Below, piece after piece: positions 23,919 to 50,789 of a DNA stretch of 64,000 nucleotides (the stretch's first letter is position 1; the number at the start of each line of letters is the position of its first letter). The DNA is from a virus. The DNA lies in the IMG/VR virus record IMGVR_UViG_3300042446_001168; one strand, written 5' to 3'. The position numbers were made by a program, and so were the translations under genes. Below the pieces are notes generated by a model, which saw only the letters and a list, made by a program, of their open reading frames with translations, was not told the DNA's origin and made no database searches.

Positions 23919-23993
23919 ATGAATTGGACTACACCAGCAGCAACAGATCTGCGTTTTGGCTTTGAAATCACAATGTACATTGCTAATCGCTAA
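23919..23993 (+). CDS. pqqA: Pyrroloquinoline quinone precursor peptide PqqA
   Basis: MNWTTPAATDLRFGFEITMYIANR*: W..P...D.RFGFE.TMY with the ExxxY core; AGGAGA RBS at 23908-23913. Confidence 0.95.
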   Translation: MNWTTPAATDLRFGFEITMYIANR

Positions 23994-24010
23994 ATAGTAA
24001 TTGTAGTAAA

Positions 24011-24300
24011 GAATTGTTGTAATCCCTTCAAAGCGAAGGCATGTTGGACGAGGGTTCGATTCCCTCCATCTCCACCAGAAACATATTGCGATGCTGTTCC
24101 GCGGCAGCGACCATAAAGAGAGTAGTGTGTTTCTGATGGGGATGACCTGGTTTCGACAGCGTGAGATAGTAGAGACGGCAACACAGTAGGCGATGACTGT
24201 AAATCAAGCAAAAACCATAAACGCAAACGATAATAAGTACGCGCTGGCAGCTTAAACACTGACCGGAGTCTGACCTGCACTTGGCAACAGAAGCAGGTCC
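24011..24300 (+). ncRNA. ssrA: Circularly permuted (two-piece) tmRNA
   Basis: Acceptor piece ends T-arm GAGGG-TTCGATT-CCCTC, CATCTCC-A-CCA (24077); intervening hairpin; coding piece starts GGGGATG (24138) giving G3:U70; tag ANDNKYALAA* at 24223-24255; terminal hairpin 24272-24299. Outer ends approximate. Confidence 0.93.
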
Positions 24301-24313
24301 CAAATTCCTCAGA

Positions 24314-26846: not shown

Positions 26847-29537
26847 TTATCCTACTCCTGCAAGAGATTTGAACCGAGAGTCATATCCAGCCGACATACC
26901 TATGGGAGCGAAGCTTGAGGAAGCCCCACCCCCACCTCCCCCACTGGAACTACTTACTATAGTGTCCCCACCTTTGTTGTTAATAACCATAGGAGTAGAC
27001 ACATTCTTTTGGATATCAAACTGCTGTATTTCATTAAGACCTTCTAGTATCTGAGCTGTGATATCGCTTTGACTGGTATGTAGAAACCCCATCAAACTTG
27101 TTCCAAGACCAATCTTTTTATCTTCGACAGCGGCAGGCTTTTTCATCTCTGCTGTAGTGTCAAAAGAAGACTCAATATCTTTTCTTTCTTGACGAGCTTT
27201 ACTCTTGGCAGCCACCCGATCAGCAAAACTCATGGTGTTGTCAGCAGGTGAGGTATCCTCTGAGGATATATTGCTTGACTGACTACCATTAGCTGCAACC
27301 ATGGCCGTATCTGGGTATGGTTTGCTTGGCCGACTATTGTTAGCTGTATCTGTTGCAGATGCCTGTGGTTTTGTAGTTACTGCATTTGTCGCCATCTGAG
27401 TATCAGCTCCTGCAGTAATACCCATCAGGGCTAATGCATTGGCCTGTCTCTTTGTTGTAGCCTTGCGATCAGATCGCTCATAGTACCAGTCGACCACAAG
27501 TGCCGCTTGATCGGCTGTTGTTGCCTGCTGTAGTAATCCTCCTGCAGATCTCTCATCGTGGGTCAATTCCCATTGAACAAAATCTAGCTGCTCTTCAAAT
27601 GAGGCATCCTTAACATCTTTACCATACATTTCCTTAAACTTGGCTAACCGTTCTGTACGCCACTGAGCAATTCCCCATGCAGATCCTTTCTTGTTATTTT
27701 TATCACCCTCTATGTTGGTCTTCATGTTTGATTCATGCTGTAAATTACCAACAATGCCAGCAGCCTGCTCTCTAGTCCATCCCTTGGACATGAAGTACTT
27801 CATTGCTTTATCAGTACTACCTGTAGCACCGGCGCCACTTGATGTACCAGCTCCCGTAGGTTTAACAGAAGATGCACTGCTAGCTGCTTGTTTCTTACCC
27901 TTCTCTTGCCTCTTATTAGTAATCTTACCTGGAGACGTAACTGACATTGCCGAAGGTTTATCAGCTTCTACCTGAGTGATCTCAGTAGTTAAACTACTAG
28001 GAAGAGTTGAAGTCATCTCAACTGCTTTCTGAGCAAGGGTTGATCCTGCAATACCGCCAGCAATGGCAAGAGGAACAGAAAACCAACCTCCCCCAGCAGC
28101 AGCACCAAGAGTACCAACAACTAGTCCTCCAGCAACTGATGCTCCAGCCATTTTTATGGAATATTGCCACAGAGCAGCTGCTTCTTCATCATTAAGCTCA
28201 CCTAACTCCTTCATGGCATCTATCTCAACGCTCAGATATGCAAGTTGACCACCTTCAAGTAAAAGGCCCAGTACTCCACCAAACTTAGTTAACTTGTACT
28301 TCATCACAGCATCAAGTAAAGTTGCTGCGCCCTTAAAAGACCCCTTGACTAATTTATTAACAGTCCTGGCAATAGCAACTCCTTGTTTAGTGAGAGGGAT
28401 ACCTGCCTTCTTTAAAGTCTCCTGCGCAGCTTTGCTTTCAGCTGATAATACTCCTCCGCTGACTTTTCTCATCAGATCAAGTCTAGAGGACTTAGTACTT
28501 GTTGCTGCTGGGGGAGCCGCGGCCTTTGCTGCTGGTGCTGGTGCTGGTGCTGGTGCTGGTGGTGCTGCTGGTGATCCTGCCTTAGGTTTATAAAGTTTTC
28601 TTGCACCTGCGGCCGCGGCTACGACACCAGTACCTACTATAGCAGTCTCTGTTATTCCTGCAGGACCCTCTGGTATTTGTCGTGATATATCCCTGCCTAT
28701 CTCAACCCCTTGCATGATAGTATTACCAGCACTCTGTAATTGTTCTCCAGTTATTCTGGTCATAACAGCCGCTCTTTTGATGTCAGGCTTAGCTGCTTCA
28801 ATTCTTTTTTCAACGGTGTTCTTTATATCTGTGGCTTTTTCTTTCACCTCATTCATAGATGGCATTGGTGGAACTACTTTACTAATTGATTGCACCATCT
28901 TACTAATCTTGGTTGACAGCTTATCAAAGCTCTCTCCCAGCACTTCTAAATGATCTCCAAGCTTTTCAGTGAGGGGATCAATCTGCTTACCAATATCAGT
29001 GCCTTTGACACCAATCATCATCTTTTCCATCAACCCACTGAAGGCAGTCTGAAGTTTGCCCTTGGTGGCATCCTCCATATTATCCCACAACATAGTTTTT
29101 CCAAGATACCCAATTATTGCTGTTGGCAATACTTTAGCCAACCCGGTCAAAATACCCGATGATATTGCAGACACCCCACCAACAGCTGCCCCACCAACTG
29201 CAGACACTCCTCTACCAGCCGACCCAACAGCTCCAGCAGCTCCTCTTCCAATAGACATGCTCAAACTACCAATAGACTTAGCCATAGATTTTGAGAGGTT
29301 ATTGAGACTGGTGTTAGTAGCCGCCGTCTGTCTAATTGTTATCTTTTGGTTACTATCAAGTCTATTGGATACAGCTAACTGCCTTCCAAGTATATTATAA
29401 ACATTAGACATTACAGCTGTCTGTCTGTTTAAAAGTGTTGCTTGCTGATTACTTTGACGTAGCTGTTGCATCCGTGAGGTTCTCATCTCACGGAGTTGTT
29501 CCATGTAGGATCTCTTATCTTGGTTAGCTTCGGGCAT
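26847..29537 (-). CDS. Tape measure / baseplate hub (gp29-like) with phage tail lysozyme domain
   Basis: Long Ala/Gly-rich helical protein; GWTREQAAGIVGNLQHES...GIAQW...R..EEQLDFV..EL...YERS (Phage_lysozyme2); position after gp26/gp51. Confidence 0.78.
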   Translation of the reverse strand: MPEANQDKRSYMEQLREMRTSRMQQLRQSNQQATLLNRQTAVMSNVYNILGRQLAVSNRLDSNQKITIRQTAATNTSLNNLSKSMAKSIGSLSMSIGRGAAGAVGSAGRGVSAVGGAAVGGVSAISSGILTGLAKVLPTAIIGYLGKTMLWDNMEDATKGKLQTAFSGLMEKMMIGVKGTDIGKQIDPLTEKLGDHLEVLGESFDKLSTKISKMVQSISKVVPPMPSMNEVKEKATDIKNTVEKRIEAAKPDIKRAAVMTRITGEQLQSAGNTIMQGVEIGRDISRQIPEGPAGITETAIVGTGVVAAAAGARKLYKPKAGSPAAPPAPAPAPAPAAKAAAPPAATSTKSSRLDLMRKVSGGVLSAESKAAQETLKKAGIPLTKQGVAIARTVNKLVKGSFKGAATLLDAVMKYKLTKFGGVLGLLLEGGQLAYLSVEIDAMKELGELNDEEAAALWQYSIKMAGASVAGGLVVGTLGAAAGGGWFSVPLAIAGGIAGSTLAQKAVEMTSTLPSSLTTEITQVEADKPSAMSVTSPGKITNKRQEKGKKQAASSASSVKPTGAGTSSGAGATGSTDKAMKYFMSKGWTREQAAGIVGNLQHESNMKTNIEGDKNNKKGSAWGIAQWRTERLAKFKEMYGKDVKDASFEEQLDFVQWELTHDERSAGGLLQQATTADQAALVVDWYYERSDRKATTKRQANALALMGITAGADTQMATNAVTTKPQASATDTANNSRPSKPYPDTAMVAANGSQSSNISSEDTSPADNTMSFADRVAAKSKARQERKDIESSFDTTAEMKKPAAVEDKKIGLGTSLMGFLHTSQSDITAQILEGLNEIQQFDIQKNVSTPMVINNKGGDTIVSSSSGGGGGGASSSFAPIGMSAGYDSRFKSLAGVG
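28531..28560. repeat. (GCTGGT)x5 microsatellite encoding a PAPAPA linker
   Basis: Direct reading of the sequence. Confidence 0.85.
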
Positions 29538-29709
29538 TCTTTATGGATTCCTCTTGCTTTTTAATATGATCGGATAACAATTGCAAATATAGATCCCTCT
29601 CAAAAACAATCATATTCTCTACTTCTGTGATTGAATAGTTGTGGTGCTGAGCCAGTATAAAAACTACTTGGTAGTAGTTCTCTAATGAGTTATGGCTCAG
29701 CGAAACGTA
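29524..29709 (-). CDS. 51: gp51 baseplate hub assembly frame lacking its own start; probably reached by -1 frameshift from gp26
   Basis: YVSLSHNSLENYYQVVFILAQHHNYSITEVENMIVFERDLYLQLL...*; typical gp51 NYY..QHH.YS..E.ENM..ERD.Y motif. Confidence 0.8.
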   Translation of the reverse strand, partial: YVSLSHNSLENYYQVVFILAQHHNYSITEVENMIVFERDLYLQLLSDHIKKQEESIKNARS

Positions 29710-30407
29710 AAAAAATCTTCAAGCGTCTTCAGCTCAATAACCCTATCTGTTCCCTTTTTGTTCTTATACTCAAGTTTATGATACATCTTAGGCATGGTAT
29801 CAAAGAACAACTCAAAGTCCTTAATGACTGATGTTGGTAAGTTATCTACAAACTCATCCACCTCTTCAGGCTTACAATCTTTAAAGTTCGTAATCTTATC
29901 ACCATCATAATACTCCTGCATGCATCCCTTGATCATAGTAAACAAAATATCAACCACAGGTTCGCCTCCAAGCATATCACTCATTAGATTCATACTTGGG
30001 TACTTCATAACAATACCAGTCTGATCAGATAGTTTGACAATATTAGTATGAGTCGGATCGTACGTTATTTCAATTTCATCTACATTAACTTTAAAGTCAT
30101 ACCGCTCTTCGTCCTCATAGTCAGTGTATGACAAATCAATTAAATTATTTACTGATTTAGCTCTTAATTTGAGAAACAAATACTCCACATCAAACGATGC
30201 TAATGAGTCTACATCCAGCTGCGAACCAACATCACAGTTGGTAATTATTTGTTTAAGAACATTTACTATGTCACTCTGTTCTGTGCTCTGCTTAGCCATC
30301 AGCAGAAGCTTTTCTTCTTTGACCACAAAGGGTCTGAATTTACATTTTTGTTTTGTCGATGGTACTGTCAATTCAAAAGTTGGGTGCATCAATTTTGGTA
30401 AAGCCAT
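29697..30407 (-). CDS. 26: Baseplate hub assembly protein gp26
   Basis: MALPKL..P.FEL, FRPFVVKEEKLLLMA, FDVEYLFLKLRAKSV, MKYPS, MPK motifs. Confidence 0.92.
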   Translation of the reverse strand: MALPKLMHPTFELTVPSTKQKCKFRPFVVKEEKLLLMAKQSTEQSDIVNVLKQIITNCDVGSQLDVDSLASFDVEYLFLKLRAKSVNNLIDLSYTDYEDEERYDFKVNVDEIEITYDPTHTNIVKLSDQTGIVMKYPSMNLMSDMLGGEPVVDILFTMIKGCMQEYYDGDKITNFKDCKPEEVDEFVDNLPTSVIKDFELFFDTMPKMYHKLEYKNKKGTDRVIELKTLEDFFTFR

Positions 30408-30422
30408 AATAACTCCTAATAG

Positions 30423-31238
30423 TTAAATTGTAAATCCTCGTATTTTGTTTGTAATATCTGATACAGCTGCGCGACCGGCCGCAAGGAGATCTCCTGCAGC
30501 TGGAGCTTCACTTCCACCTGATGCTACTGGATATCTCTTCATCGACCAATTATAAAAGGTAAACCCGACTGTAAACTCCGCAATTTGATCAGAGTCTGTG
30601 CTTGACACACTCATATCACTAATGCTTGTCGGATATGCTTTGTACATAGTTACTTCGCGGGACTTCTCTAGAGTGTGTTGAGGTAAATTTCTACCACCCA
30701 ACAACGCCCCAACAAAAGGTACCCCAGCTGCTGCTGATATCACACTAGCAGCTGCTTGTACCAGACCAGCCCCCGCAAACTTACCCTGTACTCCTCGGTA
30801 CATCTCAATAGTTATATCGCTCTCATAGTTCTTCTTAAACTCTAGCTGAAAGCTTCTACCGTTACCAGGTGCCTGAGTACCATCAGAGAATGGCATTATC
30901 GTATTCAACCATTGATAGAATACATTATACGTTACTCCACTTGCATCGCATAGAAAAGTCATGCTAACATCAGTAAACCCAACTCCTACTGGCATCTTAT
31001 GGGTAGGTCCTACGCTATATCTTTTAGTATCGACTGTCCCGAGGGCTATTCCTGGTAGTGTAGCTGTTTTGCAGAATAAGGTTAATATCCTACCTTTTTC
31101 GGACTCGTCAAATGCTTCCAACAACCCCCCTTCTCCTCCGGGAGCAGTTCTTGGGAGTCCAATCTTAACAGCATAGAGATTAGGTCTCTCTAGGTCGTGT
31201 TTATGTACAGCCGATTTGAATTGATTTATGTCTATCAT
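30423..31238 (-). CDS. 54: Tail-tube-like baseplate protein (gp54 / gp19 fold)
   Basis: RPNLYAV, LFCKTATLPG, MTFLCD, AYPTSIS, EFTVGFTF motifs. Confidence 0.75.
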   Translation of the reverse strand: MIDINQFKSAVHKHDLERPNLYAVKIGLPRTAPGGEGGLLEAFDESEKGRILTLFCKTATLPGIALGTVDTKRYSVGPTHKMPVGVGFTDVSMTFLCDASGVTYNVFYQWLNTIMPFSDGTQAPGNGRSFQLEFKKNYESDITIEMYRGVQGKFAGAGLVQAAASVISAAAGVPFVGALLGGRNLPQHTLEKSREVTMYKAYPTSISDMSVSSTDSDQIAEFTVGFTFYNWSMKRYPVASGGSEAPAAGDLLAAGRAAVSDITNKIRGFTI

Positions 31239-31777
31239 TTGTTCTTATATACAAACTGATCTAGAGGGAGTAGAATAGCCTTAGACCATTCTTCGGGTTT
31301 AACATAGAAGAACCTAGATCTAACATGACTATTTAGGTACTTTTTCACACCGTCCTTGAACCCTGAAAACTTAGAGGTTCCTTTCAGTAACCGGTAATTC
31401 AGGTTAATACGCATGCTGTCTGTAAAGGTTTTACTTGTGGATAGCGACATCAGGTTATCTAACAACGCTGCTCTGGCACCATAAGGCAGGTAATGGAAGT
31501 TCAACCCCATGAAGCCGCCCTCTACCCGTTCAAACGGAAATATAAGAGGATACCTGTCATACATAGGCAAAGTGTCTTTGTACTTTGGATCATAATTGAA
31601 CAAATACATTTTACCAATTACCAGATTTTTTGTTAGCCTATCATCTCCCTTGTTTATTACACTGGATGGAGTTTTGGATGATAGCGACTGGTACGATGTA
31701 TCAAACCAGGACTGTGCGTCTACTACCATTCCTTTTGATATGGCTTGGTTGAGCATTTGTTGATAGGTTTGAGCCAT
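31235..31777 (-). CDS. 2: DNA end protector protein gp2
   Basis: GKMYLFNYDPKYKDTLPMYDRYPL, GLNFHYLP, KKYL..HVRS, W..A..LP. Confidence 0.92.
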   Translation of the reverse strand: MAQTYQQMLNQAISKGMVVDAQSWFDTSYQSLSSKTPSSVINKGDDRLTKNLVIGKMYLFNYDPKYKDTLPMYDRYPLIFPFERVEGGFMGLNFHYLPYGARAALLDNLMSLSTSKTFTDSMRINLNYRLLKGTSKFSGFKDGVKKYLNSHVRSRFFYVKPEEWSKAILLPLDQFVYKNK

Positions 31778-32214
31778 TATTTAATACCTAAATCGTATTC
31801 TGTTAGTATCTGGAATTTCCATTTGCGGTCCTCACAAAATTTAGTAGCAAACTTCCACTTTGCACTATTTATCCCCCAAGTTTTAACCTCGTTAATATAA
31901 GTTCGAGTTGCTTTGGTTTTAGTTTTTGGTGGCTGAGTTTGTTTTTTAGGCTTTATTTCTACAACAACCACCTCAACTAGTCCATCAGCTGATTTCTTTT
32001 TTAACCAGAAATCTGGAAAATATCTATGTACCCGGTTGTCAATGGGTGATAAATATGGAATAGAAAACTCTTCACTGGCCCATTCAAGGATTTGGGGATG
32101 GGAATCCAAGTAGCTCATAAATTTACACTCCCATAGAGAGCGATAAATAATATTAGTTGGATTTCCTCTATACTTCGAGGGATTTTTTGGTTTAAAGGTT
32201 CCGCTATAACTCAT
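31777..32214 (-). CDS. 4: Head completion nuclease gp4
   Basis: PKNPSKYRG, YRSLWE, HRYFPDF, VEIKP, NSAKW..A motifs. Confidence 0.93.
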   Translation of the reverse strand: MSYSGTFKPKNPSKYRGNPTNIIYRSLWECKFMSYLDSHPQILEWASEEFSIPYLSPIDNRVHRYFPDFWLKKKSADGLVEVVVVEIKPKKQTQPPKTKTKATRTYINEVKTWGINSAKWKFATKFCEDRKWKFQILTEYDLGIK

Positions 32215-32225
32215 AGGATATTTTA

Positions 32226-33386
32226 ATGAATGTTCCACCATCTACTGGACAGTCTAGCTCAGGACTCCAAGGGTATACCGTAAATAGTTCTGGGGGTACC
32301 AATGATGAAAGGTTATCCAATCATCTCAGTCAGAAAAAAGGATCTCCAGCAACCAGTGGTAGCCCATCTACGTCCAGCACAACTTTGCCGGAAAAAGAGA
32401 TTGATGAAAAAAGATCTAGTACCCTACTGGGAAACAAGTCTCCATTTATTTTTCCAAGTGATTTGTCTACTGATTATTATATATCTTTGAACGCATTTAA
32501 ATTCTCTCAAGATAGAGCTACTGAGGTCAAAAGACAGTTTAGTTATGAACAATCAGTGTATCTTCCTCTACCTGGTAATATATCAGATAGTTTTGGAGCA
32601 TCCTACGAAAAAGAAAATCTATTCTTCTTTGGTAACGCTGCAAAAGAGGGAATGAACTCCATGATGCAAGAAGGAGGTACTGTCAGTATTCAGAATGCTT
32701 TAAGCCAGAATCTTGGAAATTTAGCTGGCAAGGGAGCCACTAACCTCGTTAACACTATCAAGAATGATCCAATGGGTGCTGGTAAAAATGCTCTGGCTGG
32801 AGCATTGACGTATCTAGTGTCTGGAGTAGGTGGTCCACTAGCGGCCGCTGCAAAAAGCTCAATGCAAGTGACCACAAACCCTTTTCCTGTAATGATCTTC
32901 CAGGGAACAGGTTTCAAACCTCCCTTTTCTTTTGACTGGACTTTTTATCCAGAATCGTTGGAAGAGTCTAAAACTATACGTAAAATTATTGGATATTTTA
33001 GAAGAGAGATGCTACCAGAGATGATGGCTGAAAATAAATCTATCCTAAAAGCTCCTGCAATATTTGAAATAAAGATGGTTCCTGACGCATATATGAGACA
33101 ATTCAAGCGATGTGTACTGACTAACATGAATGTAAACTATACTCCTAACGGAGCTACATTCTTATCCTCTTCCTCTGAAGACGCTAAAGTTCCTGCTGCT
33201 ATTACTATGTCGCTGACATTCGAAGAAATTGAAGTGTGGCTTGCAGATGATTATTACGCTAGCGAATACAATTCGTTTGGAGTCAAGGACAGAAACTACA
33301 CTCCACCAACCTCAATGACCGGTACTCAAGGAGTAGTTGCTAATAACGAAACAAGAGGCGTTGCCAAAGGAACCCCGTTTGGGTAA
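32226..33386 (+). CDS. 48: Baseplate tail tube cap gp48
   Basis: VYLPLP, NPF..IFQG, FSFDW.FYP.S..ES, FKRCVLTNMNVNYTP, LTFEEIE. Confidence 0.85.
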   Translation: MNVPPSTGQSSSGLQGYTVNSSGGTNDERLSNHLSQKKGSPATSGSPSTSSTTLPEKEIDEKRSSTLLGNKSPFIFPSDLSTDYYISLNAFKFSQDRATEVKRQFSYEQSVYLPLPGNISDSFGASYEKENLFFFGNAAKEGMNSMMQEGGTVSIQNALSQNLGNLAGKGATNLVNTIKNDPMGAGKNALAGALTYLVSGVGGPLAAAAKSSMQVTTNPFPVMIFQGTGFKPPFSFDWTFYPESLEESKTIRKIIGYFRREMLPEMMAENKSILKAPAIFEIKMVPDAYMRQFKRCVLTNMNVNYTPNGATFLSSSSEDAKVPAAITMSLTFEEIEVWLADDYYASEYNSFGVKDRNYTPPTSMTGTQGVVANNETRGVAKGTPFG

Positions 33387-44264: not shown

Positions 44265-47200
44265 ATGTCACTTGAAACTAATTTTAACGCATCACCATTC
44301 TATGATGACTTTGACGAAGAGAAGAACTTTCATCGGGTTCTTTTCAGACCAGCTGTACCAGTTCAGGCAAGAGAGTTAACTCAGCTTCAGACTATTCTTC
44401 AGAACCAGGTTGAGCGTTTTGGTGACAATATCTACAAACAAGGTACTGTTATTAAAGGGTGTAATTTCACCTACGACTACAACTATCAGTACATCAAGAT
44501 TAGGGATTTACAAGTAGATGGCCAGAATGTAACGCTACCTAATTACATGGGGTTATATGCAACAGATACCACATCTAATTTAAATGCTGTGGTGGTAAAC
44601 TACGTTACTGGTCTTGAGACTCAAGATCCTGAAACTAATATATTATACATCAAGTATCTTAACACTGGCGATAGCGAGAAGAAGACCTTTGCAAACAACG
44701 AGACAATTACTCTTTTTAATAGTGATTATAGATTAGATGACGTTCTGATAACGGTTTCTGGTACTGGATATAGCAATACAGAATATCTAACTTTTACTGG
44801 AGGAGGTGGGTCGGGCGCAGCTGCTAATCTAGTAACTTACTCTAACGGCTCTATTAGATCTATTATAATTAGCAATTTTGGATCTGGATATGTTACCGCT
44901 CCAACTGTAGCCATAGTAAATTCAACAGGTGGTGCCACCGTTTCTGGATCTGGTGCAGGCCTTACAGCAATTAATTATTATGCACAGATAACTGTATGTG
45001 ATAGTACTTTTTCAGCTAACTCAACTACTCCTGTGGGAACAGGCACAGCTGCTACTATTGGCGATGGTATAATATACCAAAAAGGACATTTTGTCAGGGT
45101 AGAAGAGCAGACAGTCATTCTGGATAAGTACACTACGTCTCCTAACAATGTAGTTGTTGGATTCTATACCCAAGAATCAATTGTCAATTCCTATTTTGAT
45201 TCCACATTGCTGGATAATGCTCAGGGATATTCTAATTACACTGCTCCTGGTGCTCACAGATTAAAACTTACACCAACTTTACAGGTACTAACTACTCAAG
45301 CTGCATCGGGTAATTCAGAATTCTTTAAGTTAGTTGAATTTGAAAATGGTAGAGTAATTAAACTAAAAACTGAAACTGAATTTAACTCGGTAGATAAAAA
45401 ACTTGCTTTGAGGACGTCTGAGGAGAGTGGCGATTATGTTGTCAGTCCGTTTACCATTAGCACCGAAGATATTACTGGTAACACTACTCACCTAAATGCA
45501 GTAGTTAGTTCTGGTATAGGATATGTTGATGGTACTCGTGTAGAGTTGAATGATTCGGTGAGAATTGCCATCAGGCAAGGTACTGATACTAACACTTCTA
45601 TAAATCAGTCCATATCTACTAACTATGGTAATTATGTACTAGTGGATCAAATATTAGGAGTGTTTGATTTTACCGCTGCAGCTTCAGTTAATTTAAGAAA
45701 TACAGCTGCTACAGACAACTCGGATAATTTTGGAGGAGGACCATCCTCACCAGGATCAGTCATAGGCACATCAAAGATAAGATCTTTAGTATATGATTCA
45801 GGTGTACCGGGGTCACCAACTGCCAGGTATAGACTGTATCTATTTGATATTGTCATGTCACCTGGAAATACTTTTAAAGATGTAAGATCCATTCAAGCTA
45901 CTGGGGTTGTTGCCGACACGGTTCTTGAGAACAGTGTTTCTGTATTAAAAGATACGGATTATGATACACTATCATTTACAAGTGGGTATGCCTCAGTTAA
46001 GTCAGTTGCAAATGTAGATTTTATATACAGAACTGTTACTGCTAATACATTTACAACTTCGGGAAATGTGAATATTCAAGTGACAGGGACGTATGATTAT
46101 TTCCCATATACTCCAGCATCGACCCTGAATAGTATCCAAGAGCAGGATTTTATTGTTGTTCCCACTGCCAATGCTACAGGAGCCACAGCCCTATCTGGTA
46201 CTGTTGCTACTACCGGCAATGTTGTCACAGGTACCGGCACAGAGTTTGCTGGTCAGTTGCAGGTTGGAGATCATATTAAATTCCAAGCCAACGACACGTT
46301 CTTCAAAGTCACTGCTATCACTAACACCACTTCAATGACCGTGAACAGCGTTGGTCCACAGTCGTTAACTGGTAATACGTTGTTTTTAGCTTTCCCAAAA
46401 AATATTCCTATCAGACTTGACAGGGAGACTGCTAACGTTGCTATTGATGCTACCGGTAAATTTGCATCTATCTACGTCGGCAATACCATTTCAGGTACAA
46501 CTGATGTTAAAGTATTTCACAATGTAAAGGTGTCACCCGGTGTTAATACGGTGTACAAAGCAAAGACAGTTACTAAGCAGGTTTACGTAAAGTTATCTAC
46601 TGATAGATTGAGTACAACTACAATAGGACCTTGGTGCTTAGGTATCCCTGATGCCTATAAATTAAATGCAGTGTATGTTGGAACTTCTAATACATACTCA
46701 AATACTACAACCAATTATGCAAGTAGCTTCGAGTTAGTTACTGGCCAATCTGATAATGCGTATGGATTATCATATCTTAGATATAAGCCAGGCAGTATTT
46801 TGTCCTTATCAGCAACCAGTTGTTTGTTGGTGTCAGTTGACTTATTCACTCACAGTGCCGGTTATTTTTTAGCAGCTCCATCATATCCAATAGATGACTC
46901 AACAGTATCTCTACCAGCTAACAAAATAAGAACCTCTGATATACCAACATTTAGATCCCCAAAAACTGGTAGACTTTATAATATTAGAAGTATTGTTGAT
47001 TTTAGGCCAATAGTAGCTCCAACCGCTAACGTTGCTGCAACAACTGTTGCTAGTGCAACAGTGGATCCCGTAACTACAGAAACTCTAACTGGTACCTTAT
47101 ACTTTCCAACTCCCAACGAGATTTTTGAAGGGGATGTTGAATATTACATGCCTAGAGCAGATAGAATTGTTATTGATAAGAACAATAACATTAATGTTAT

Positions 47201-50200
47201 TGAGGGAGTACCTGGTATCAGTCCAGTACCACCCAGACCGTACGATAAGACGATGTCGTTAGCTACGGTGTTGGTTCCATCCTATCCATCCCTATCACCA
47301 CAGTTGGCGTTTGAATCACTGAGACCAGACTACGCTACGTTTGTGGTTACTGATCAGGTAAAACGATATACCATGAAGGATATCAAGAGAATTGAGCAAC
47401 GTATTCAGAGTCTTGAATACTATTCACTTCTCAACACTCTCGAGAAGAACACAAAGGATTTAATTATTCCAAGTGAAGCTAACTCAGCGGTGTCAAGATT
47501 TAAGAATGGTTTCTTTGTGGATCCACTAAACTCATATGATATTGCTAATGTTAATGACTTGGAATTTAATATAACTATTGATACTGCTAAATCAGTTGCT
47601 CGCCCACCACTTGATCAAAATGTAATCAATCTCAAAGCAAATACATCACTATCATCAGGATATGCTATAAAAGGGGATCTAGCTCTTCTCAATTACGCTC
47701 AAGCAGTTGCATTGGAGCAGCCACTAGCTACTAGATTTCGAAATCTTGCTGGGTTGGCCTGGTCGTATGATGGCCGAGCAAGACTTTTTCCTGAGTATGA
47801 TAATTACTATGATACTACACGAGATGCTGTTAAATTCACTATTGATTTATCTGCTCCCTTAGATGGACTGGTGAAATCTATAAATGATAGTGTGGTATTC
47901 AAAAAAGATTCAAAGACTGTCACTACTACTCAATCGGATTGGGTTAACGCTAATGAAAAATGGGGATTCACGTGGGGAGCTGGACTAGTAGACATTGAGG
48001 AACAAACAACCAAGACTATTACAAACACCAGCAAGTCATCTATAACCGCCGGTAAGACCACTCAATCAGAACAGCAGATTGGCGACTTTTTAACCGACTT
48101 TGACTTTAATCCTTTCGTGAGAGAGCAGGAAGTTTATTTTGTGGTGACTGGTCTAAGACCTGGAGCAAGACACTATGTTTTCTTCGATAAGAAAACTATT
48201 GATGCTCGACCAGGGGAAGTAGCAGATCTTGCTAGTATTGTCAGCAGTGAATCACTATCTAAGAACGATACCTTTAAATTTACCGGATCAAAGAGTGCTA
48301 ATCTAGTAGCCAACAGTACAGGTGGATTAGCTGGATGTATATTTATTCCAGGAAACACTTTTAACGTTGGTCAGAAGGAAGTCCTGATTGCTGATGTTGA
48401 TAGTATTAGTAGCCTCGATACTTCTGTGTCTAAAGCAATGGTATATTTTAATGCTTACAACTTTAACAAGCAAATTAAATCATTGACGATGGTAACAAAG
48501 GCGCCATCATCGTTCCAAACTACCGAAAAGGTTACCCGGACTGTTAATACTGCGGTAGTGTCTAGAGTATCAGTACATACTGTTGATCCGCTAGCCCAGA
48601 CTTTCAATATTAACTTTAATGAGGGTACTGATGGAGTGTTTTTGACCAAGGTGGATTTATATTTCCGTAGTAAAGATCCTTCGTCTGGAATAACAGTTCA
48701 AATTAGAGAGACAGATAATGGATATCCAGCTCCAGCCATATTAGCCCAAAAACAAATCTCGTCATCAGGGGCTCAAACAAGTAATGTGGGATCTGTAGCT
48801 ACTACTGTAACCTTTGATACTCCTATATTTGTAAGAAATAATAAAGATTATTGTATAACTCTAATTCCTGATGGAAATTCTCCTAACTGGTTAGCATGGA
48901 CATCAGTTCCTGGACAACCGGATGTAGATACCAATCAAGTTGATAATGGTGATTTTGGTGCTGGGGTGTTGTTTGTATCGTCCAATGATAAGGTGTGGAC
49001 ACCAATACAAAATGAGGATCTGAAATTCACAATATACTATGCTAACTTCACATCTCATACTGCTAACATAGTGTTAGAAAATGAGCCTTACGAATTTCTG
49101 ACCTTGACAGGTGTCGAAGGATCTTTTCAAGGGGGAGAAAGAGTAGCTCAAAAAGCTAGTGCCTACATTGCGAATAGTGCAGTGTTCACTGGTAACACAA
49201 GTAGTAGTGTGTTGAGTACGTCTACCAGTCTAACTAGTAATGTATCCGTAGGGGATTACTTGTTGATGGTGAATGCTAATAATATAACAACGTCGCTGAC
49301 AGGAACAGTTACAGCAAATGGTACGCACACTAACGTATCCGGATCTGGAACATCTTTCTCTACCCAGCTAACGGTTGGTGATTATATATACATTAACAAC
49401 AACATAAGAGAGGTAAGAAGTATTTCTAATACCACTCACATGAACCTTGACGCTCCTTTGCAATCCAATGTAGCAGCTAATTTGTTTTACGGTGTAACGG
49501 AGTCGTTCCAAGTAAGCAAGGTGTTGTCTGTAAATTCTACAAGTATATCGCTGAAAGATAACCTAGAGAAAAATATTAACAACACTACCGCATGGGTAGG
49601 AGTTCAAAGAGTTGTTAGTGCTGTTGTTGATAAAGTGGATACCAATGATACCGTTGTATTAAGAGATTCTAATGCAGCAAATACTACATTTTTGTTTGCT
49701 GCTACTGGGCGCTTAGTGGGATCAACGTCTGATGCGGTGGCTAGTATTTCTAGTGTAGATGACTTTACGGTTAATTATTGTGAGCCTCATATATCTACCA
49801 TTGTTCCTTTACCCGCAACAATCAGTTTGACTCAGACTATTGCAGGAACAACAGCTGCGTCTCAGTCGCAACCAATTAATTTTGGTGTGTCCAATAAAAC
49901 CATATATGAAGCAGAAATAAGATCAAGAAGCAATGAAATACTTTCGTATTCCGGAGCAAAATCACTTCAGGTCAGTGTTGGTCTCAGTAAACCTTCTACT
50001 GTAAGTAAGATTAGTCCTGTTGTAGATTTAATTCCTGCTAGTATGGTTGTATTGCAAAACAAGATCAATAATCTCTACGATAATGAAACTACTCGATATG
50101 GCAATGCCAAGGTAAAGTATATTTCCAAAAAGGTAGTATTAGCTGATGGGTTAGATGCAGAAGATCTCAAGGTGTATTTGACATCCTACAGACCTTCAGG

Positions 50201-50789
50201 AACCGATGTCAAGGTTTATTGTAAGGTGTTAAGCAACGATGACAATGAGTCTTTTGATACTAAAGAGTGGTCGGTAATGAATCTTGAGACAACATCTAAT
50301 CTATTCAGTGATTCAGCAAATGAAGATGATTATCTAGAGTATGAGTACTCCATTGCAAGAACTCCAACATCAACAAAACTTGCTGGACTTGTTAAAACTA
50401 ATAGTAATACCACTTTGACAGGATCAGGTACTACATTTACATCTAGTCTTGTTGCAAACGACATTATTAAGATTGTTAATTCAAGCACAACTACGGACTA
50501 TGAAATAAATGTGGTCGATAGTGTGACTAACAATACATCATTAGTTTTAAAAACTGCAATTGGCCCATATTCAGATACCGGTACCAGTGGTCTGAGTATT
50601 GAAAAGGTAACTCAACCAAAGGCTACGTTTAAATATGCTGACGATGGTAATTTTGCTAGATACTACGATGCTTCTTTATCGGCACATACATCGTTTAAAA
50701 TCTTTGCGATAAAGGTGGTGCTGTTGTCAACTTCAACACAGAATGTGCCAACTGTCAAAGATATTAGGGCGCTGGCGGTTTCTGTATGA
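44265..50789 (+). CDS. Large virion structural protein, DUF4815/VrlC-like
   Basis: PFYDDFDEEKNFHRVLFRP..VQARELTQLQTILQNQ, APGAHRLK, RT.EESGDY, LEYYSLLN.LE, RFKNGFFVD, DPLAQTF, EDLKF motifs. Confidence 0.88.
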   Translation: MSLETNFNASPFYDDFDEEKNFHRVLFRPAVPVQARELTQLQTILQNQVERFGDNIYKQGTVIKGCNFTYDYNYQYIKIRDLQVDGQNVTLPNYMGLYATDTTSNLNAVVVNYVTGLETQDPETNILYIKYLNTGDSEKKTFANNETITLFNSDYRLDDVLITVSGTGYSNTEYLTFTGGGGSGAAANLVTYSNGSIRSIIISNFGSGYVTAPTVAIVNSTGGATVSGSGAGLTAINYYAQITVCDSTFSANSTTPVGTGTAATIGDGIIYQKGHFVRVEEQTVILDKYTTSPNNVVVGFYTQESIVNSYFDSTLLDNAQGYSNYTAPGAHRLKLTPTLQVLTTQAASGNSEFFKLVEFENGRVIKLKTETEFNSVDKKLALRTSEESGDYVVSPFTISTEDITGNTTHLNAVVSSGIGYVDGTRVELNDSVRIAIRQGTDTNTSINQSISTNYGNYVLVDQILGVFDFTAAASVNLRNTAATDNSDNFGGGPSSPGSVIGTSKIRSLVYDSGVPGSPTARYRLYLFDIVMSPGNTFKDVRSIQATGVVADTVLENSVSVLKDTDYDTLSFTSGYASVKSVANVDFIYRTVTANTFTTSGNVNIQVTGTYDYFPYTPASTLNSIQEQDFIVVPTANATGATALSGTVATTGNVVTGTGTEFAGQLQVGDHIKFQANDTFFKVTAITNTTSMTVNSVGPQSLTGNTLFLAFPKNIPIRLDRETANVAIDATGKFASIYVGNTISGTTDVKVFHNVKVSPGVNTVYKAKTVTKQVYVKLSTDRLSTTTIGPWCLGIPDAYKLNAVYVGTSNTYSNTTTNYASSFELVTGQSDNAYGLSYLRYKPGSILSLSATSCLLVSVDLFTHSAGYFLAAPSYPIDDSTVSLPANKIRTSDIPTFRSPKTGRLYNIRSIVDFRPIVAPTANVAATTVASATVDPVTTETLTGTLYFPTPNEIFEGDVEYYMPRADRIVIDKNNNINVIEGVPGISPVPPRPYDKTMSLATVLVPSYPSLSPQLAFESLRPDYATFVVTDQVKRYTMKDIKRIEQRIQSLEYYSLLNTLEKNTKDLIIPSEANSAVSRFKNGFFVDPLNSYDIANVNDLEFNITIDTAKSVARPPLDQNVINLKANTSLSSGYAIKGDLALLNYAQAVALEQPLATRFRNLAGLAWSYDGRARLFPEYDNYYDTTRDAVKFTIDLSAPLDGLVKSINDSVVFKKDSKTVTTTQSDWVNANEKWGFTWGAGLVDIEEQTTKTITNTSKSSITAGKTTQSEQQIGDFLTDFDFNPFVREQEVYFVVTGLRPGARHYVFFDKKTIDARPGEVADLASIVSSESLSKNDTFKFTGSKSANLVANSTGGLAGCIFIPGNTFNVGQKEVLIADVDSISSLDTSVSKAMVYFNAYNFNKQIKSLTMVTKAPSSFQTTEKVTRTVNTAVVSRVSVHTVDPLAQTFNINFNEGTDGVFLTKVDLYFRSKDPSSGITVQIRETDNGYPAPAILAQKQISSSGAQTSNVGSVATTVTFDTPIFVRNNKDYCITLIPDGNSPNWLAWTSVPGQPDVDTNQVDNGDFGAGVLFVSSNDKVWTPIQNEDLKFTIYYANFTSHTANIVLENEPYEFLTLTGVEGSFQGGERVAQKASAYIANSAVFTGNTSSSVLSTSTSLTSNVSVGDYLLMVNANNITTSLTGTVTANGTHTNVSGSGTSFSTQLTVGDYIYINNNIREVRSISNTTHMNLDAPLQSNVAANLFYGVTESFQVSKVLSVNSTSISLKDNLEKNINNTTAWVGVQRVVSAVVDKVDTNDTVVLRDSNAANTTFLFAATGRLVGSTSDAVASISSVDDFTVNYCEPHISTIVPLPATISLTQTIAGTTAASQSQPINFGVSNKTIYEAEIRSRSNEILSYSGAKSLQVSVGLSKPSTVSKISPVVDLIPASMVVLQNKINNLYDNETTRYGNAKVKYISKKVVLADGLDAEDLKVYLTSYRPSGTDVKVYCKVLSNDDNESFDTKEWSVMNLETTSNLFSDSANEDDYLEYEYSIARTPTSTKLAGLVKTNSNTTLTGSGTTFTSSLVANDIIKIVNSSTTTDYEINVVDSVTNNTSLVLKTAIGPYSDTGTSGLSIEKVTQPKATFKYADDGNFARYYDASLSAHTSFKIFAIKVVLLSTSTQNVPTVKDIRALAVSV

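Follow-up and report, generated by a model that had tools for sequence, protein, structure and literature searches.

A programmed -1 ribosomal frameshift very probably operates at the 3' end of a single gene of the gp26/gp51 family in the lake-water T4-like phage of IMG/VR virus record IMGVR_UViG_3300042446_001168, of which we analysed a stretch of 64,000 nucleotides (nt), here called the window. A first-pass annotation of the window, prepared from its letters alone, had read this gene end as a hidden switch of the type that yields the tail assembly chaperones G and GT of phage lambda. That reading gains support from slip sites in all 74 evaluable relatives, from a predicted stem-loop downstream of the site, from the architecture of T4 gp51, and from the chaperone-like fold modelled for part of the gp26-like protein.

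The gp26-like open reading frame (ORF) occupies positions 29697-30407 of the minus strand—the strand of all coding and signal features treated below unless another is named—and, as read from the sequence, encodes 236 amino acids followed by TGA. This zero-frame gene, assigned by PF12322 and phrog_150, would give the short, 'G-like' product. Its 3' end reads GAA GAT TTT TTT ACG TTT CGC TGA and contains the slippery heptamer T TTT TTT (29709-29715), which is in phase X XXY YYZ relative to the gp26 frame (GA-T TTT TTT) and lies 13 nt before the stop. Past the T run, the -1 frame continues TTT TTT TAC GTT TCG..., reads ..FFYVSLSHNSLENYY.., and stays open until a TAA at 29524-29526. The resulting extension (29524-29709), a gp51-type C-terminal module, comprises 61 codons from TAC (29707-29709) to AGC, followed by the TAA. 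A shift at the heptamer would produce a protein of 294 amino acids (29524-30407), the predicted gp51 or 'GT-like' equivalent, in which gp26 residues 1-233 are joined to the 61 added residues at the junction ..LEDFF/YVSLSH... The sole ATG in the extension (29611-29613) is codon 34 after the first TTT and would have to serve gene callers as the start; no other ATG, GTG, or TTG occurs within the first 42 codons.

Small corrections aside, the sequence anatomy around the heptamer is confirmed as first described. Rereading the sequence returned the slippery site, the gp26 3' end, and the open -1 frame at the positions given in the first-pass annotation, and its estimate of about 295 amino acids for the fusion agrees with the 294 predicted here. 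It had also placed the only ATG midway along the extension and past the conserved part, which proved correct, since the conserved residues lie upstream of it. The annotation erred in putting the TGA that closes the -1 frame two codons before the T run; this stop (29719-29721) is one codon 5' of the heptamer.

The slippery site and the -1 arrangement are conserved far beyond chance. The relatives compared were 67 IMG/VR loci (66 evaluable), at 32-75% protein identity, and annotated phages of several families: the cyanophages S-CAM4 and Syn1, Pelagibacter phage Mosig, Sinorhizobium phage phiM12, Stenotrophomonas phage Moby, Aeromonas phage AS-zj, Pseudomonas phage Milchi, Cronobacter phage LPCS28, and Vibrio phage Kuja. 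The 66 loci and eight of the annotated phages make up the 74 evaluable relatives, Kuja falling outside the heptamer criterion, which was an in-phase T TTT TT(T/C/A). This motif is present 7-31 nt 5' of the gp26-type stop in 74/74, and a homologous segment continues in the -1 frame in the same 74/74; the heptamer and the phase are accordingly shared by all evaluable relatives, a comparison that the first reading had itself proposed. The -1 frame is closed 6-60 nt 5' of the heptamer in these relatives, and a start codon between that upstream stop and the heptamer was found at 2/74 loci only, which bears out the original statement that the gp51 segment has no adequate start of its own. Six T are constant, and the A-site codon differs among relatives (TTT, TTC, or TTA, for Phe or Leu), the run being 7 T long in the window, 8 in some clades, and 6 followed by C or A in most relatives. 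T always stands at the wobble base before the heptamer, the preceding codon being one for Asp, Asn, Ser, Gly, or Thr. In the GenBank records of relatives, the extension is covered by no gene or by a 43-54-amino-acid 'gp51' called from an internal ATG, and frameshift annotation is absent from nine GenBank records of frameshift-type phages. A DNA-level search of a phage collection with the window gave two short matches only, to uncultured marine viruses.

The extension itself bears the marks of protein-level selection. In a comparison of 18 distinct sequences from the window's clade, extension codons 7-33, all of them 5' of the window's ATG, have 13, 8, and 24 variable columns of 27 at positions 1, 2, and 3 of the -1 frame. 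The protein sequences of 34 extensions (that of the window and those of 33 relatives) align without a gap, and their near-invariant residues, at positions 11, 15, 19, 23, 25, and 27, are all 5' of the methionine at position 35. This methionine, encoded by the extension's ATG, is not conserved and is replaced by leucine in six close relatives (L004, L014, L015, L019, L022, and L024). Because variation is concentrated at third positions and because the gapless alignment and the conserved residues lie 5' of the only start, the extension is, to judge from these comparisons, protein-coding from the shift site onward and devoid of an initiation signal of its own. An AlphaFold2 (AF2) model of the extension has four helices, with a predicted local distance difference test (pLDDT) score of 80.

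After a spacer of 7 nt (29702-29708), the heptamer is followed by a predicted stem-loop (29646-29701) composed of an outer stem of 9 base pairs (bp) and an inner stem of 10 bp. In the outer stem, GCUGAGCCA (29693-29701), which contains the gp26 stop UGA, pairs with UGGCUCAGC (29646-29654), located about 40 nt downstream; in the inner stem, 29673-29682 pairs with 29659-29668. The minimum free energy (MFE) of the stem-loop is -24 kcal/mol (z -5.2), and 0 of 200 shuffled sequences were as stable. The outer stem is kept in 18/18 relatives, the sole change being a C to U opposite G by which a G-U pair is retained, and two covarying pairs are found in the inner stem. Third codon positions are invariant in 5/6 cases within the stem versus 1/22 outside it (Fisher p 3.5e-4). 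Members of other clades (L026, L027, L029, L036, phiM12, and Milchi) have hairpins of their own 3-7 nt past the heptamer, with z of -2.7 to -4.1 as obtained from single-sequence MFE and mononucleotide shuffles only.

The relationship to phage T4 gives the arrangement its context. T4 genes 26 and 51 are, as initially stated, separate, and they are divergently transcribed. T4 gp26 (208 amino acids) consists of PF12322 alone, T4 gp51 (249 amino acids) consists of PF12322 (residues 1-201) and a tail matching phrog_634, and the two align with each other at E 2e-6. The gp26-like protein of the window matches PF12322 (T4_baseplate) over residues 9-233 (E 4.4e-52; 177.4 bits, cut-off 24.5) and phrog_150 (E 2.5e-58). 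Its -1 extension aligns at E 1.1e-21 with phrog_634, 'baseplate hub assembly catalyst' (gp51), over profile positions 56-115 of 121, that is, in the C-terminal half only; a second match is to the last 50 positions of phrog_150, and Pfam gave no match for the extension on its own. The segment that had been taken for a complete gp51 thus corresponds to the C-terminal module of gp51 only, and the gp51 equivalent is the whole fusion. Against phrog_150, the predicted fusion is collinear over positions 5-281 and T4 gp51 over positions 13-280, and BLASTP aligns T4 gp51 residues 191-244 with the fusion straight over the shift junction, the extension corresponding to T4 gp51 residues ~200-246.

Judging by these alignments, T4 gp51 is a gp26 paralogue with a C-terminal tail homologous to the extension. 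Both proteins of the T4 pair, like the window pair, belong to PF12322; the fusion would be the collinear counterpart of gp51, C-terminal tail included, and the short product resembles T4 gp26 down to its C-terminal ..L(K/E)(E/D)FF... The window contains both the PF12322 body and the gp51-type tail, and these become one polypeptide only if the -1 shift occurs, whereas the two forms of T4 are products of separate genes that do not overlap and lack a T run.

Complete genomes of frameshift-type relatives, including a 162-kb terminal-repeat contig of the window's clade, contain one PF12322 gene each, versus two in T4; this count rests on the complete relatives, the window itself being 64 kb. Stand-alone gp51 proteins of ~249 amino acids are found in 1380 phage records, with Escherichia, Klebsiella, Acinetobacter, Aeromonas, and similar hosts. 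In five two-gene phages, including T4, Octan, KFS-EC, and 44RR, the homologous FF codons of gp26 and gp51 are free of a T6 run (in T4 the site reads GAG TTC TTT GAG). On this comparison, two-gene phages appear to be a natural control, the slippery sequence being absent where the slip is unneeded. In an unrooted maximum-likelihood tree, which has several long branches and does not distinguish gain from loss, ten two-gene paralogues and 19 frameshift-type genes are split by a 99/97 branch; this topology fits a single duplication in the lineage of T4, RB49, 44RR, RB16, and the Acinetobacter phages, as far as gene phylogeny can suggest it.

Two of the two-gene phages deserve separate mention. In Escherichia phage RB16 (L078, 1501-2794), gene 54 is immediately followed, on one strand, by genes 51 and 26 in tandem and with an 8-nt overlap, an order that resembles a transitional state between the frameshift arrangement and the divergent pair of T4. 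In the GenBank record of Acinetobacter phage Octan (L080, 789-2256), gp26 and gp51 are both named 'tape measure protein assembly chaperone', so the chaperone assignment for the two-gene form is already present in at least one annotation.

Structure prediction points in the same direction. The AF2 model of the gp26-like protein (pLDDT 87; predicted template modelling score 0.82) was compared with 48,161 PDB representatives by exhaustive structural alignment. The best matches were 3fgx, an uncharacterised protein (Z 8.1); 2ob9, the HK97 tail assembly chaperone (Z 6.8); 3klu, the Bacillus subtilis prophage protein YqbN (Z 6.7), which we take to belong to the XkdN-like chaperone family; and, in fourth place, 5ir0, ORF19 of a Vibrio cholerae element resembling phage-inducible chromosomal islands (Z 4.9). 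The top three matches all fall on model residues 1-95, with 85-86 residues aligned over nearly whole target chains. The presence of two phage tail chaperones among these three modelled matches is hard to put down to chance. At 8-11% identity and a root-mean-square deviation of 4.6-4.7 Å for HK97 2ob9 and YqbN 3klu, however, what the model suggests for the N-terminal domain is a resemblance of fold to tail chaperones and not proof of homology. Foldseek returned no match to the model in the PDB at E <= 0.001, and a profile search of PDB sequences returned nothing relevant.

The window shares with lambda G/GT the order of tube gene, chaperone gene, -1 extension, and tape measure gene; a heptamer situated a few codons 5' of the stop that ends the upstream ORF; an extension that has no start of its own; and, according to the model, a chaperone-like fold in the N-terminal domain of the upstream product. 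As in other frameshifts of the G/GT type, the arrangement is kept despite low sequence identity. The two systems differ in several respects. The protein family of the window is PF12322, and its short form, at 236 amino acids with a second domain at residues 96-236, is larger than that of lambda. The extension is short, with 61 amino acids in four predicted helices, while the T domain of lambda has ~140 amino acids. Slippage would occur on U UUU UUU, where lambda has G GGA AAG, and the likely point of action of the window pair is the T4-type central hub. Lambda gpG/gpGT and the conserved -1 frameshift in tail assembly chaperone genes are the subject of a series of studies (Levin 1993; Xu, Hendrix, Duda 2004, 2013, 2014), which Atkins et al. 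(2016, PMC5009743) summarise; their review describes the G-T frameshift as conserved in phages with long tails 'except T4'.

From this body of evidence we infer the ribosomal nature of the slip, its efficiency, the chaperone role, and the partners. Most ribosomes would read GAT TTT TTT ACG TTT CGC and stop at TGA, releasing the 236-amino-acid gp26-like protein. A fraction would pause over the stem-loop 7 nt past the heptamer, and both tRNA-Phe would then slip one base back on U UUU UUU, so that reading would resume at TAC GTT TCG... and the 61-residue four-helix tail would be added to give the 294-amino-acid protein. This long form would have the architecture of T4 gp51, namely a gp26-like body with a C-terminal tail. 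The short and the long form together would act on the tape measure and the central hub at tail initiation in a lambda G/GT-like manner. By analogy, the pair most likely holds the tape measure protein and couples it to the tube-fold hub proteins at the start of the tail. We propose this role because of the gene order, the chaperone-like N-terminal fold of the model, and the literature on T4 gp26 and gp51, in which both are hub assembly chaperones and gp51 is required yet absent from the particle (Leiman et al. 2010, PMC3004832).

The same 294-amino-acid fusion could also arise by ordinary translation if RNA polymerase added one U while transcribing the T7 run. Homopolymeric U/A runs are known slippage sites, UUUUUUU is under-represented in Escherichia coli genes, possibly on account of slippage (PMC4066793), and the run of 7 T in the window reaches 8 in some clades. 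Such polymerase slippage is nevertheless unlikely: most relatives have only 6 T before a C or A, which is short for efficient polymerase slippage, and slippage sites are typically homopolymers of at least 9 bases that act independently of phase and structure, a length that the window run does not attain. The run is, moreover, always in X XXY YYZ phase, and a conserved stem 7 nt downstream is spaced as in ribosomal -1 frameshifting. Contigs of two RNA libraries, which represent a variant ~93% identical, have substitutions at the site and 0 gaps, hence no extra base; these, like the DNA contigs discussed below, are Logan contigs, in which minority forms with a base insertion can be hidden. Slightly less probable again is the existence of two separate genes, with a small 'gp51' initiated at ATG 29611-29613 (30 amino acids) or at the non-canonical CTG 29698-29700. 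It is true that 43-54-amino-acid 'baseplate hub assembly catalyst' ORFs are annotated in Syn1, Mosig, phiM12, and Milchi, that gene callers give proteins of 40-99 amino acids for the extension segment, and that a Met is found at extension position 6 in a few lineages. Against a separate gene speak the conserved residues and the coding signature 5' of the ATG; the fact that the Met of this ATG varies within the window's own clade; the rarity of any start between the -1 stop and the heptamer (none in 72/74 loci); and T4 gp51, in which the homologous tail is covalently joined to a gp26-like body. The CTG, which the first-pass annotation had named together with the internal ATG as a possible independent start, lies within the invariant stem, is not preceded by a purine run of Shine-Dalgarno type, and is not retained as a start codon by other clades.

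Finally, a single in-frame gene could have been split by a homopolymer error or by a recent frameshift mutation. Homopolymer runs are error-prone, and two rare metagenome gene calls in the databases, P0147 and P0160, combine a gp26-type C-terminus and the extension in a single reading frame; they represent hard-wired fusions that exist in nature or else homopolymer errors. To artefact or decay as an explanation we nonetheless assign almost no probability. The window stretch is present in at least 20 lake-water metagenome runs, and the contigs of two independent lake-metagenome DNA runs are identical to the window across the site and have 7 T, not the 8 that would make a plain fused ORF; different lake samples and different years also gave T7 in independent assemblies. 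Relatives recovered in many studies all share the phase (74/74), and the 120 closest protein clusters all end at 230-241 amino acids. An assembly artefact is excluded.

Some observations weigh against a programmed ribosomal frameshift followed by a G/GT-like role, or at least against its uniform occurrence. The product of polymerase slippage would be identical at the protein level. In simple MFE folding, many marine relatives are without significant downstream structure, which implies that the stimulator is not universal. An ATG or GTG is found 3-8 codons past the heptamer in 5/74 relatives, and the Ackermannviridae relative Kuja has CTT TTT C, a non-canonical heptamer; for these two reasons, some lineages may use independent initiation or another mode of shifting. 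The structural Z of 6.7-8.1 is modest, and such values can, as the alignment tool warns, reflect a common arrangement. Vibrio phage Kuja itself (L076, 2700-2940) has a gp26-type gene and then a homologous -1 segment, PFSITLSDHSLEEFF.., with the site AAC CTT TTT CAA and a -1 frame that is open for 97 nt upstream; it may shift in another way.

The genes adjoining the gp26-like gene agree with the order proposed in the first-pass annotation, namely tube-like gp54, gp26, gp51 segment, and tape measure, now on the basis of profile matches. Directly 5' is a tube-fold gene (gp54/gp19-like; 30423-31238, minus strand) that matches PF23849 (Phage_TTP_2) and phrog_45 (tail tube; E 1.3e-38). On the other side, the -1 extension is followed by a tape-measure-like gene of 896 amino acids (26847-29537, minus strand), which matches phrog_9570 (tape measure; E 1.2e-27) and has a PF18013 lysozyme domain at residues 577-701; its ATG overlaps the 3' end of the extension, the overlap amounting to 14 nt. 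A homologous long ORF begins -11 to +29 nt from the extension stop in 48 relatives, in which the order of genes is also kept. NCBIfam returned nothing for the gp26-like protein, the extension, the tape-measure-like protein, or the tube-like protein. Among relatives, conservation over the first 445 residues of the tape-measure-like protein is good only in the N-terminal 30 (..SYxEQLxEMR..). Other T4-type neighbours in the window are gp32, gp2, gp4, and gp48, of which the gp4-type head completion protein (31777-32241, minus strand) also matches PF08722, the TnsA-like endonuclease N-terminal domain, at E 2e-21.

Farther away, the structural region contains a very long ORF of 2174 amino acids (44265-50789, plus strand), followed by ORFs of 533, 1148, and 772 amino acids. 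The plus strand also carries a single tRNA-Met (CAT) gene at 2758-2832 and, at 23966-24311, a transfer-messenger RNA (tmRNA) that matches Rfam RF01850 (betaproteobacterial tmRNA; 158 bits, E 7e-49) and the permuted-tmRNA model RF04321 (152 bits), and for which ARAGORN gives the tag peptide ANDNKYALAA. The betaproteobacterial type of this tmRNA and the lake-water source hint at a betaproteobacterial host. A scan for sigma-70 promoters and terminators found nothing specific 5' of the extension. The T4 late-promoter core TATAAATA has 0 occurrences on both strands of the whole 64-kb window (~5.4 expected from shuffles); the late-promoter consensus of the window phage probably differs from that of T4, and the absence of the T4 core therefore provides no argument for or against an internal promoter.

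A frameshift acting on a tail chaperone gene ahead of the tape measure is a mechanism, and would serve a role, of a known kind. Its interest here would lie in the removal of the T4 exception and in a concrete model for gp51. Our search of openly accessible literature found no report of a frameshift in gp26/gp51-type genes, and the PRFect paper makes no mention of baseplate, T4, or cyanophages. Outside the T4/RB49/RB16 lineage, T4-like phages would make a gp51-type protein by a slip at the end of a single gp26-type gene that immediately precedes the tape measure gene. Annotation would be corrected in hundreds of genomes of cyanophages and other marine and freshwater myophages, in which the extension is now a 43-54-amino-acid 'gp51' or is not called at all. 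The finding also provides a testable model in which gp26 and gp51 act together as chaperones of the tape measure and the hub.

We lean towards the view that the -1 frameshift is the ancestral route to the tape-measure/hub chaperone pair across the T4-like superfamily—by which we mean Kyanoviridae, the Pelagibacter and Methylophilales myophages, the phiM12-like and Moby-like phages, and part of Straboviridae—and that T4 and its close kin replaced it by gene duplication, with a hard-wired long form. The group would then offer a natural example of a recoding event replaced by gene duplication. If this is true, the G and GT that T4 seemed to lack are its gp26 and gp51; the 'catalytic' part played by gp51 in hub assembly would thereby be accounted for, and the sole reported exception to the tail-chaperone frameshift would be removed.

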